Shown: positions 9,038 to 59,222, counted from the stretch's first letter. The stretch: 64,000 nt of DNA from an uncultured cyanobacterium (GCA_963710605.1 CAVQBA010000006.1:736001-800000), one strand, 5' to 3'. The notes: generated by a model from the sequence alone, not told the origin. Numbers and translations are program-made.

Positions 9038-9114
9038 AGGGTGTAAGCCGTCCTGGTGGACATCCCTTGCGGGCGTGTAGCATCTGAGCGGAATTCCACC
9101 GCTTACACCCCTGC
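9038..9114 (-). mobile_element. REP-like hairpin carrying a 53-nt structured insert (9050-9102)
   Basis: Minus strand reads GCAGGGGTGTAA|GCGGTGGA...TCCACCAGGAC|GGCTTACACCCT. Confidence 0.7.
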
Positions 9115-37950: not shown

Positions 37951-39024
37951 ATGACTCGATCGTATTCTCTCAACAGTTGGCTAGACAAAGAAACCAGAAA
38001 AAGGATTTATCAAAAATCTGACTGGAAAGCAATTGGTATTTTTCTCGGACAAATTTTTCTTTATTTGATTTGTTTAGTTGGTGCGATCGCTGATTACTCA
38101 ATTATTTTTAATTTGATTTTCAGTATTTATCTTGGTTTTACGATCGGTCAAATTTTTATAACTGGTCATGATGCTTGTCATCAGGCTTTGACAAAATCTT
38201 CTTTTCTCAATCAAATTATTGGTAGAGTTGCTTTTTTATTTTCTCTTCATTCTTATTCTCTGTGGACAGTTACACATAATAACTATCATCATAACTATAC
38301 CAATATTAAGGGATTAGATCCTGTCTGGTGTCCAATGACAAAGGAAGAATTTGAATCTCAAAATTTAGTTCGCCGTTACCTAGAAAAACTATATAGAAGT
38401 TCGATCGGCGGCGGCTTTTATTATCTTCTCGAAATGTGGTTACAGAAATTTATTGTGCCTATTAATACTCAAGTTCGCTCTGAATGGAAAAAATATCTGC
38501 CTGACAGTATTTTAGTTCTTAGTTTTGCTATTTTGCAAACTTTTGTAATTGTTTATTTAGGTAGTTTTCTTGCCCCAAACAAGTCACCTATAGAAGTTTT
38601 AGTTTTAGGTTGGCTGATTCCTTTTGTGTTATGGAATTGGTTTATGGGAATCGTTATATATTGTCATCATACACATCCTGATATTCCTTGGTTTCAAAAA
38701 CATGAAAAAATTCCCTTTAATCAAATTCAAACTCATGTTACCAGTCACGTTATTTTTCCCAAACTGGTTAGCAGATTGTTGAATAGTATAATGGAACACA
38801 CTGCTCATCATCTTCAACCAACAATTCCAATGTACAATCTAAAGTTGGCACAAGACAAACTAGAAGAAGTTCATCGTCAAAACATAGTTGTCTATAATTG
38901 GAGTTTGGCAGAATATTGGAAAATTACTAAAATTTGTAAACTTTACGATTTTGAACAAAGATGCTGGACTGATTTCAATGGTAATCCGACATCTAAACCT
39001 GTTTGCACCGACTTTGAAAGCTGA
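37951..39024 (+). CDS. Membrane fatty acid desaturase
   Basis: His boxes GHDACH, HNNYHH, HHTH and HTAHH. Confidence 0.92.
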   Translation: MTRSYSLNSWLDKETRKRIYQKSDWKAIGIFLGQIFLYLICLVGAIADYSIIFNLIFSIYLGFTIGQIFITGHDACHQALTKSSFLNQIIGRVAFLFSLHSYSLWTVTHNNYHHNYTNIKGLDPVWCPMTKEEFESQNLVRRYLEKLYRSSIGGGFYYLLEMWLQKFIVPINTQVRSEWKKYLPDSILVLSFAILQTFVIVYLGSFLAPNKSPIEVLVLGWLIPFVLWNWFMGIVIYCHHTHPDIPWFQKHEKIPFNQIQTHVTSHVIFPKLVSRLLNSIMEHTAHHLQPTIPMYNLKLAQDKLEEVHRQNIVVYNWSLAEYWKITKICKLYDFEQRCWTDFNGNPTSKPVCTDFES

Positions 39025-39075
39025 GTTAAGCTACAAAAGGAGAAAAAACAGCAGTAGTAATTTTTATATTTTTCT

Positions 39076-39200
39076 GTAGGGGTGCAAGCGGTGGAAGCCC
39101 GCGTCGGCGTAAGACGCAAACGGTCAGAACCCGCGACGACGGCAAGTCGCAAGGGAAGGCTGACCAAGACGGGAACGTCCACCAAGACGGTTTGCACCCT
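39076..39200 (+). mobile_element. REP containing a 50-nt element (39088-39188) that itself contains a 51-nt relative (39120-39170)
   Basis: Removing both inserts leaves GTAGGGGTGCAAGGTTTGCACCCT, identical to 13707-13730. Confidence 0.85.
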
Positions 39201-39275: not shown

Positions 39276-39551
39276 ATGGAAGGAATTCAATATATTGTCG
39301 ATGACAAAGGAGAAAAAACAGCAGTAGTAATCGACTTAAAACAATGGGGTAATATTTGGTCAGAATTTTCTACTGTGTTAGCCGATCGTTTTAGAGAAAA
39401 AGAGGAATGGTTATATCAAGATGGTGGAGAAGAAAAACTCGATCGTGTTGAAGACACGGCGCTGCGCGATCGAGCATTAGAATGGTCTGCTAATAACCCA
39501 CCTCAAGAGTCTGATTTAGAAGAGCTAGAAAGAAAAATTAGACAATCATGA
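39276..39551 (+). CDS. Small antitoxin-like hypothetical protein with a 27-nt in-frame insertion
   Basis: IQYIVDDKGEKTAVVIDL; CGATCG-21 nt-CGATCG at 39440-39472. Confidence 0.65.
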   Translation: MEGIQYIVDDKGEKTAVVIDLKQWGNIWSEFSTVLADRFREKEEWLYQDGGEEKLDRVEDTALRDRALEWSANNPPQESDLEELERKIRQS

Positions 39552-58562: not shown

Positions 58563-58934
<372 letters not shown>

Positions 58935-58949
58935 TCATAATTGAGAATT

Positions 58950-58999
58950 GCGGTGAGAACCCGCGGAAGTTCCTTCCGCTAGGGAACGCTCACCAAGAC
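58950..58999 (+). mobile_element. 50-nt structured element inserted in a GAGAATT tandem repeat
   Basis: GCGGTGAGAACCCGCGGAAGTTCCTTCCGCTAGGGAACGCTCACCAAGAC. Confidence 0.85.
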
Positions 59000-59222
59000 G
59001 AGAATTGAGAATTGAGAATTAATAATTAGTTATTGATCCAAATTACGATAATTTATAATTAATGCTTTCTCATTCTCTCAATTTAATTCTCAAAATATCG
59101 ATCGATCAATGGCTACATAGTAATTTTTTTATTTCAAAGTTATTGTTTAATTAAAATTGGTTATATTTAAGACCAGAGTTTATTTTATAATTATCGATCA
59201 ATTTTTAAAAACCCAGATTTCT

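Follow-up and report, generated by a model that had tools for sequence, protein, structure and literature searches.

Small dispersed repeats (SDRs) were reportedly described by Elhai et al. in 2008 (Genome Res 18:1484) from Nostoc punctiforme and its relatives, as structured elements of 21-27 nt that are embedded in heptamer repeats and nest within themselves. In PMC5861425, SDRs are said to be absent outside the Nostocaceae. According to a paper citing Elhai et al. 2008, SDR5 inserts between bases 3 and 4 of HIP1. A different class of short repeats, the REPs, is defined in PMC3733652 as palindromes that carry GTAG or CGTC as a tag at one end.

We analyzed a stretch of 64 kb from an uncultured cyanobacterium (referred to as the window), for which a hairpin element of about 50 nt had been predicted. 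The original prediction had compared this element to the SDRs. The comparison was apt for its behavior, namely the heptamer hosts, the self-nesting and the compensatory changes, while size and lineage differ. We found a real, abundant, structure-selected and precisely inserting element family, which is a larger, new relative of the SDR kind. The family most probably consists of non-autonomous mobile elements of 50-51 nt that are selected for their structure and inserted precisely by a trans-acting enzyme. A description of the family was not found in the openly readable literature, although Elhai et al. 2008 may hold an earlier account, and searches of literature text with 11-13-mers of the element returned unrelated primers only.

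Copies in the window and their relatives

All four copies of the original prediction were present at their positions and in the hosts named for them, which are a REP loop in two cases, a heptamer array and another copy (Table 1). A covariance model made from other copies re-found all three contiguous copies of the window. The scores in Table 1 refer to model R1, which was built from 37 distinct contiguous copies and which outer split copies cannot match.

Table 1. Element copies and their host repeats in the window, with scores for model R1 and the corresponding contig positions in brackets.
Feature	Position	Strand	Remarks
REP host, GTAG tag and 5' arm GGGTGCAA	39076-39079 (tag), 39080-39087 (arm)	+	
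Outer copy, 5' part, 32 nt, end ...GACGCAA	39088-39119	+	
Inner copy, 51 nt	39120-39170	+	between GCAA and GGG of the outer copy, the standard self-nesting position of the family; 68.1 bits (C6:775120-775170)
Outer copy, 3' part, 18 nt, GGGAA...ACCAAGAC	39171-39188	+	
REP host, loop GGT and 3' arm TTGCACCC	39189-39199	+	
Single copy, 50 nt	58950-58999	+	exactly between two GAGAATT tandem units; 62.0 bits (794950-794999)
Heptamer host array, GAGAATT x3	59000-59020	+	in phase after the insert
Diverged copy, 53 nt	9050-9102	-	loop position of a REP variant; bracket parse with 3 errors; 30.2 bits, E 3.1e-4 (745050-745102)
REP-variant arms GGGTGTAA / TTACACCC around the diverged copy	9103-9111 and 9039-9049		

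Bracket parsing recovered the outer copy (C6:775088-775188, span 101) as an element of 50 nt with 0 errors. The TCCACC in its 3' part pairs with the GGTGGA in its 5' part, and the 3' parts of the outer and the inner copy together form an 18-nt tandem. Tag and 5' arm of the host recur in about 28 REPs of the window's genome that have an empty GGT loop. The composite of REP, outer copy and inner copy was predicted to fold into one long hairpin (-30.7 kcal/mol, z -3.4). Folded as single-stranded DNA, the inner copy reached -10.4 kcal/mol (z -2.7), and the single copy in the heptamer array had a folding energy of -12.9 kcal/mol (z -3.3). This single copy lies 16 nt downstream of the stop codon of a glnB-like gene, and one and a half units of its host array (58940-58949) precede it. 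Rfam gave 0 matches at the gathering score for the 64-kb window, and at E<=10 the region 58900-59050 produced chance-level noise only (11-12 bits).

A perfect direct repeat of 26 nt (39036-39061 and 39306-39331) brackets the REP with its nest and the start of the next gene. Since the second copy of this repeat is located inside the first codons of that gene (MEGIQYIVDDKGEKTAVVI...), the first copy looks like the remnant of a 270-bp duplication. A 17-mer resembling a REP arm was seen at 39001-39017, in the last part of the ORF upstream.

The window's genome (G000) comprises 7 contigs with a total of 3.93 Mb; its G+C content is 33%, and the assembly is about 85% complete. A strict pattern had 42 matches in it, and model R1 had 47 contiguous matches. 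By seed scans and bracket parsing we obtained 59 elements at 42 loci on six of the seven contigs, five of these elements (C1:33395, C6:119837, C6:199838, C6:367922, C7:410061) being judged as rearranged or mis-joined. Three additional, more diverged copies were located within TnpB genes of this genome, beyond the 42 loci. The same pattern read backwards gave 0 matches in the 41 genomes searched. The length of the element was 50-51 nt, with variants of 49-54 nt, and 40 of the 42 loci were intergenic.

Tandem heptamer arrays were the host at 22 of the 42 loci, GTAG-REP loops at 10, a second palindrome at 6 and other sequences at 4; the script had assigned 21, 9, 2 and 10, respectively, and six of the loci classed as "other" were reassigned by eye. 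One copy was present at 27 loci, two nested copies at 13 and three nested copies at 2. Self-nesting (15 of 42 loci) always used a single position, with the inner copy following GCAA and preceding GGG. In all nests the outermost halves, 5' and 3', pair with each other, and such bracket-correct nesting is predicted if one copy inserts into another. An identical composite of outer and inner copy was found at 8 loci. Among incomplete copies and nests, 3' halves outnumber 5' halves (LRR and LRRR patterns), and the orphan 3' halves all begin at one and the same base.

Two loci, C4:1143600-1143950 (locus C4:1143770) and C4:1306204-1306454, have common flanks (...CTGTCTCAA / AACTTAATT...). One of them holds a single copy, and at C4:1143770, a further locus beyond those counted above, two 5' halves and six 3' halves are piled up. 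Several of the 3' halves in this pile start with ACCGAA instead of GGGAA, a variant that breaks the CCC/GGG helix.

The element was detected by model R1 in five of the 20 genomes of the taxonomic family, with 47 matches in the window's genome, 24 in G019, 12 in G002, 5 in G001 and 1 in G009. In a sample of the phylum, 6 of 151 genomes carry it, all within one order. A scan of one genome per species yielded at least 117 stretches, and all 80 records listed were cyanobacteria. According to the record titles, the matches listed include Okeania, Xenococcus, Waterburya, Pleurocapsa, Prochloraceae, Baaleninema, Dapis and Limnoraphis, as well as Cyanothece sp. BG0011 and bins of Rivularia and Leptolyngbyaceae. 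Among these matches, the hosts in other genera were again heptamer arrays, hairpin loops, the element itself and genes. The element is patchy among close relatives and widespread in cyanobacteria. One viral contig only carried it in IMG/VR; this contig (L194, 1403-1501, minus strand) has two copies that are 3 nt apart.

Fold and selected strand

The element starts with a 5' lead of 2 nt (GC) and a 6-bp outer helix, of which the middle three pairs are variable. Inside the outer helix, a fixed CCC/GGG helix is followed by an inner hairpin of 5-7 bp with free sequence. The inner hairpin is followed by the conserved unpaired GGGAAYG and by a 3' tail that is conserved and single-stranded, with the sequence ACCAAGA, then C or G and sometimes a further A. 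The ends read 5' GCGGT and 3' ACCAAGAS in 85 of 85 aligned copies. RNAalifold returned, unaided, the same three-helix hairpin that we had drawn by hand, a single composite hairpin over positions 3-46 of 50.

Covariation in both variable helices, as claimed in the original prediction, was confirmed and extended. Changes on both sides were found for 6 of the 14 pairs in alignment A1 (37 sequences) and also for 6 of the 14 pairs in alignment A2 (84 distinct sequences from many genera). The fraction of paired cells was 98.1% in A1 compared to 85.3% after shuffling (0 of 500 shuffles were as high), and 98.7% compared to 86.7% in A2, values from a shuffle test that is inflated by related sequences. 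Independent of this test are the number of pair types and a control in which the partners were slid by 1-3 columns; this control gave 23-38% for A1 and 21-43% for A2. Since the covarying positions were free in the search patterns, the covariation was not built in by the selection of sequences. The view of the element as structure-selected is supported by this covariation.

The non-Watson-Crick cells comprised 21 G.T on the top strand (GCGG...AAGAC) and 0 A.C, an A.C cell being equivalent to G.T on the opposite strand. Sixteen of the 21 G.T cells fell on one pair, in twelve inner-hairpin contexts from several genera, and at this pair they occurred in 19% of the distinct sequences. Wobble on the top strand only shows that the fold is selected on one strand, as a single-stranded molecule. 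What selection acts on is the single-stranded form of the top strand. The unpaired GGGAAYG and the ACCAAGA tail were invariant or nearly so across genera, which points to a possible recognition of these bases by a protein.

A second family of about 50 nt has similar ends (GYGGTCA... and ...CAAGAN) and a different interior (G000:C4:47233, minus strand; G000:C6:529344, plus strand; locus L053). It has the REP-loop slot and the self-nesting slot in common with the family studied here. The similar ends together with the same slots suggest a superfamily that is defined by its ends. A third, palindromic element of about 49-51 nt with A/T-rich arms around a GGGGG...CCCCC core has inserted into the region of the inner hairpin in four copies of the window's genome (C7:410161, C1:220711 and C4:1172131 on the minus strand, C6:199796 on the plus strand). 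One instance of it is itself interrupted by another insert.

Insertion sites and host genes

Both junctions were base-exact at more than 100 sites, and the comparison of empty and filled paralogous sites defined the insertion as an exact unit of 50-51 nt. About 28 REPs with a plain GGT loop were empty (56 rows, each palindrome being read on both strands), versus 9 REPs filled at the same bond between 5' arm and GGT and 2 filled variants. For the second palindrome, 7 empty copies compared with 6 filled ones, in which 51 nt were added within the 3' arm. The heptamer arrays kept their phase across the insert. The absence of a target duplication, part of the original prediction, held against empty REP, palindrome, TnpB and IS1-like sites, all of which were paralogous. 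In a genome of the same genus (G001), the spacer downstream of glnB is without the element and is too diverged to align, the flanking genes being about 81-85% identical. Where an A flanks the insert on either side, it is ambiguous to which side one A belongs, and the element can be read as 50 or 51 nt.

The second palindrome has about 40 nt, with 10-bp arms (CCCCTCTCCT / AGGAGAGGGG) and a 3-nt loop, followed by TTGGGGGTGAGGT; examples in the window's genome are located at C1:337007, C4:40021 and C4:1203398. It translates to SPL..LGKGG-like motifs, which occur as in-frame inserts in TnpB homologues.

At 89 distinct non-nested sites from several genomes, position -1 was A in 78% and T in 18%, and element position 50 was C or G in 95%. 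The base after the element was A in 84% and G in 16%, and hence a purine in all cases. The left flank of these sites was purine-rich, positions -2 to -4 being merely A/G-rich. The statement that every copy sits just 5' of a G was correct for the four copies of the window, but for the family as a whole it has to be replaced by a purine; in ACTCCTT arrays, for example, the element is followed by A. Eight of eight copies hosted by ACTCCTT arrays had the same phase and orientation, and the arrays themselves occur on both strands (22 and 20). The window's genome has 469 perfect heptamer arrays with at least three units, most commonly AACTCTT, AATAATT, AATTGAC and AAGGAGT, and 20 of the arrays adjoin a copy. 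The preferred sites are purine-rich or A-rich, namely heptamer junctions, hairpin loops, the element's own nesting position and runs of lysine codons in genes. Insertion is that of a discrete unit with base-exact ends, in one orientation relative to asymmetric targets.

A pairing code between a guide and its target was rejected by eye, the identical element sequence being found in ACTCCTT, GAGAATT, GACAATT and REP hosts. Recombination at a core dinucleotide or core sequence (IS110, IS607, IS91-like) was also rejected, with no core visible that is common to the element ends and the targets.

Relative to the neighboring genes, 15 copies were co-directional, 9 opposite and 16 mixed, as based on crude ORF calls, and no clear bias was visible. 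The top strand was located on the C-rich strand at 30 of 44 loci, which is a weak lead given a weak GC skew and loci that share hosts. Many copies follow closely on a gene, several of them being only 6-40 nt away from an ORF end. Together with the copy 16 nt after glnB, this location just downstream of genes would suit a functional RNA or DNA motif (terminator, processing site or protein-binding site) that is not mobile itself and was spread as a passenger of its hosts and by gene conversion. Such a motif would also be consistent with the recurrence of the composite at 8 loci, with the strong conservation of unpaired bases across genera and with the finding that in G002 and G123 every copy is within insertion sequences. 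We nevertheless consider this explanation improbable. Identical sequences occur in unrelated hosts with unrelated outer flanks (six kinds of heptamers, REP, palindrome and the element itself), empty and filled versions coexist for each host, and the orientation to neighboring genes is mixed. Moreover, the element breaks reading frames with stops, which is not expected of a beneficial motif.

Of 109 distinct sites, 21 were gene-embedded, with at least 70 open codons on both sides. Of these, 18 were in sense and 3 in antisense orientation, corresponding to roughly 12 versus 3 independent host slots. Among the host genes are those for IS5-like and IS630-like transposases, for a histidine kinase and for a methionine-synthase-like protein; the copies in antisense were located in an NRPS, a P450 and a TnpB gene. 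In a TnpB protein of the window's genome, 17 residues between ...KGKK and GYPQF... come from the element. The closest homologues, which have 403 residues and are 76-81% identical, are without the insert, as are about 90 of the best 120 homologues. The remaining homologues have the element in each of the three reading frames, or other small inserts nearby. In G123 and G051 the element occupies the same slot in two TnpB lineages. The linker before GYPxF (...NCKK...PGKK / GYPKY...; homologues P0001-P0120) was seen to be a hotspot for unrelated small in-frame inserts, with TGDINAWGFPRRRAL in 7 proteins and SPLTPLGKGGK-like sequences in 6.

In G002 the element was present in frame, and ends in a TAA stop, in every one of the 12 copies of two insertion-sequence subfamilies. 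The insertion sequence (G002:C1, e.g., L004 and L009) has 890 bp, and its subfamilies are 78-81% identical to each other. The TAA is made by a T at element position 50, which occurs in G002 only. An IS1-like element of G019 was present in four copies with 51 nt inside an A7 run and in one copy that lacks exactly these 51 nt. The A7 run (G019:C8:290450-291750; L199, G019:C31:15400-16400) is of the A AAA AAC form, and the downstream frame is -1 relative to the upstream frame. Presumably, the split run is a programmed frameshift site of the IS1 type. Between host lineages the element was 96-98% identical, compared to 57-72% for the 240 nt on either side. This higher conservation implies that the element is younger than its hosts and was inserted repeatedly into the same slot, or that it was kept by selection or conversion.

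We also considered that the insert is tolerated or used at the level of RNA or translation, being removed from the mRNA, bypassed, or employed as a recoding or attenuation module of the transposase. This would explain why the insertion sequences that carry it still multiply, and it would agree with the 12 of 12 in-frame copies in two diverged subfamilies of G002, with the four interrupted A7 slippery runs and one empty run in G019, with the conservation of the element above its flanks and with the sense bias in genes. However, recent repeated insertion into a preferred A-rich slot, with defective copies subsequently spread in trans, fits these findings too. Most copies of the window's genome are intergenic, and no known ribozyme or recoding family matched in the Rfam search of the window. 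We therefore regard such a use as most unlikely. A mobile structured RNA module that homes into A-rich gene slots (mostly of transposase genes, including the IS1-type frameshift site), and that is removed, bypassed or used by insertion sequences as a brake on transposase, would correspond in bacteria to the mitochondrial "byp" inserts or to mini-introns. It would account for an element conserved far above its host genes and for multiplied insertion sequences with stops; from the sequences we judge it to be highly improbable.

Route of movement and comparison with known systems

An element of 50 nt has no coding capacity, so the term non-autonomous used in the original prediction is supported by size. 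Most likely, the element is moved in trans by an enzyme encoded elsewhere. According to this proposal, a single-stranded copy of the top strand would be recognized by its hairpin and tail, and the recognized copy would then be cut and joined by that enzyme. HUH enzymes (IS200/IS605, RAYT) usually act on substrates in which a hairpin precedes a short 3' tail. An HUH/Y1 enzyme would agree with the exact junctions at more than 100 sites and with the anatomy of a hairpin plus short tail, and we therefore tentatively favor a single-strand DNA route, which may depend on a RAYT- or TnpA-like enzyme of the HUH/Y1 type.

The window's genome contains 12 Y1_Tnp matches, including intact RAYT-like genes of 180 aa (C2:30776-31318, C4:589590-590132, C1:347610-348152), and 18 RVT_1 matches, the highest numbers of both among the 20 genomes of its family. 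The co-occurrence with such genes that had been suggested as a check did not emerge: Y1_Tnp was present in 17 and RVT_1 in 17 of the 20 genomes versus 5 of 20 for the element, which does not track either of them. Near the RAYT-like genes, only one filled REP was located within 3 kb (at a distance of 2.6 kb). Among the close pairs of copies inspected in the window's genome, none bracketed a gene for a mover; the pairs C4:1250031/1252497 and C1:110797/114958 have ordinary genes and not transposases between them. Further features count against the DNA route. G.T pairs are tolerated freely, which suits RNA more than DNA. The bias toward sense copies in genes is as an RNA route predicts, although purine-rich targets could also cause it. 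Finally, a fixed target of 4-5 nt is missing, and there is one hairpin instead of two.

RNA-mediated movement is said to have been proposed for the SDR elements of Nostoc. For the element studied here, a transcript of the top strand would fold and would be copied back by a reverse transcriptase, by target priming or by an attack similar to reverse splicing. Wobble restricted to the top strand (21 versus 0), which 16 distinct sequences of several genera retain, is what RNA helices typically show, and the sense orientation at 18 of 21 gene-embedded sites points in the same direction. Also consistent with it are the predominance of 3' halves among incomplete copies and nests, the A-rich targets with an ambiguous A at the 3' junction, and the 18 RVT_1 matches, the top value of the family. 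Such routes rarely yield exact 5' junctions, however, and more than 100 sites were base-exact at both junctions, target duplications, tails and ragged 5' ends being absent. The same-base start of the orphan 3' halves is equally well explained by slippage between tandem 5' halves. RVT_1 is far more common among the relatives (17 of 20) than the element (5 of 20), and intergenic copies co-oriented with both neighboring genes were only 15 versus 9. In view of these points the RNA route seems somewhat less likely than the DNA route. Some route other than HUH-type DNA transfer or reverse transcription is conceivable and about as likely as the RNA route. The single-strand DNA route remains our preferred reading.

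The element is probably taken from genome to genome by those of its copies that reside in insertion-sequence genes, which would account for its patchy distribution, and this kind of riding suggests how tiny elements can cross between genomes. How the smallest mobile repeats of bacteria move has been a question since the description of the SDRs in 2008. The family provides better material for this question: the element is longer, has clear ends, a defined fold, one selected strand and a simple target rule, and base-exact empty and filled sites of four kinds are available. Its presence in many cultured cyanobacteria, for instance Xenococcus sp. PCC 7305, Baaleninema simplex PCC 7105 and Okeania hirsuta, makes binding, cleavage and insertion assays and population sequencing practical. 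For annotation it is of importance that the element adds 17 residues to transposase and housekeeping genes or breaks them, and that it splits other repeats.

MITEs differ from the element in their ends, since GCGG and AGAC are not inverted repeats, and no target-site duplication was present at any site compared. With the REP/REPIN-RAYT system the element shares the short hairpin, the mostly intergenic location, the presumed recognition of one strand, the lack of target duplication and the presence of RAYT-like genes in the window's genome. In contrast to REPs and REPINs, it has no GTAG or CGTC tag and a 5' end of GCGG. Copies are single or nested in direct orientation, with no inverted doublets among the 42 loci. 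In our case, the GTAG-REP serves as host rather than as guest.

IS200/IS605 elements and PATEs would be comparable in lacking a target duplication, in having one orientation and single-strand hairpins and in being cleaved a few bases 3' of the hairpin; TnpA and TnpB genes are abundant in the window's genome. Unlike IS200/IS605 with its separate left-end and right-end hairpins, the element has one hairpin. Instead of a fixed tetra- or pentanucleotide target, it shows A or T at -1 and a purine-rich context, and 50 nt is far below the size of known derivatives. Rickettsia palindromic elements (RPEs) and REPs in genes are described as similarly palindromic in-frame inserts that lengthen loops and leave the gene intact. 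By the same descriptions, RPEs have about 100-150 bp and belong to a different phylum, whereas the element prefers repeats and transposase genes and sometimes breaks the frame. The GC clusters and "byp" inserts of yeast mitochondria are likewise mobile hairpins that are rich in G+C, measure tens of nucleotides and reside in a genome rich in A+T, sometimes in coding sequence, and the bypassed gap of phage T4 gene 60 has 50 nt. Those cases concern a eukaryotic organelle or a phage and bypass was demonstrated there, whereas our element is known from sequence.

The SDRs are the closest counterpart. Like them, the element is tiny, non-coding and dispersed in many copies (59 at 42 loci), and it has a secondary structure with compensatory changes. 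It resides within tandem heptamers (22 of 42 loci) and within itself (15 of 42 loci, two or three deep). Precise insertion at a fixed bond of the host repeat, as described for SDR5 in HIP1, is a further likeness. Unlike the SDRs of 21-27 nt, the element has about twice this length (50-51 nt), folds into a three-helix hairpin with a conserved 3' tail, and is frequent inside genes, above all those for transposases. It occurs in unicellular and filamentous non-heterocystous lineages, whereas PMC5861425 reports SDRs from Nostocaceae only. Judged by the descriptions of the SDRs, the family appears as a larger SDR-like element from outside the SDR lineage.
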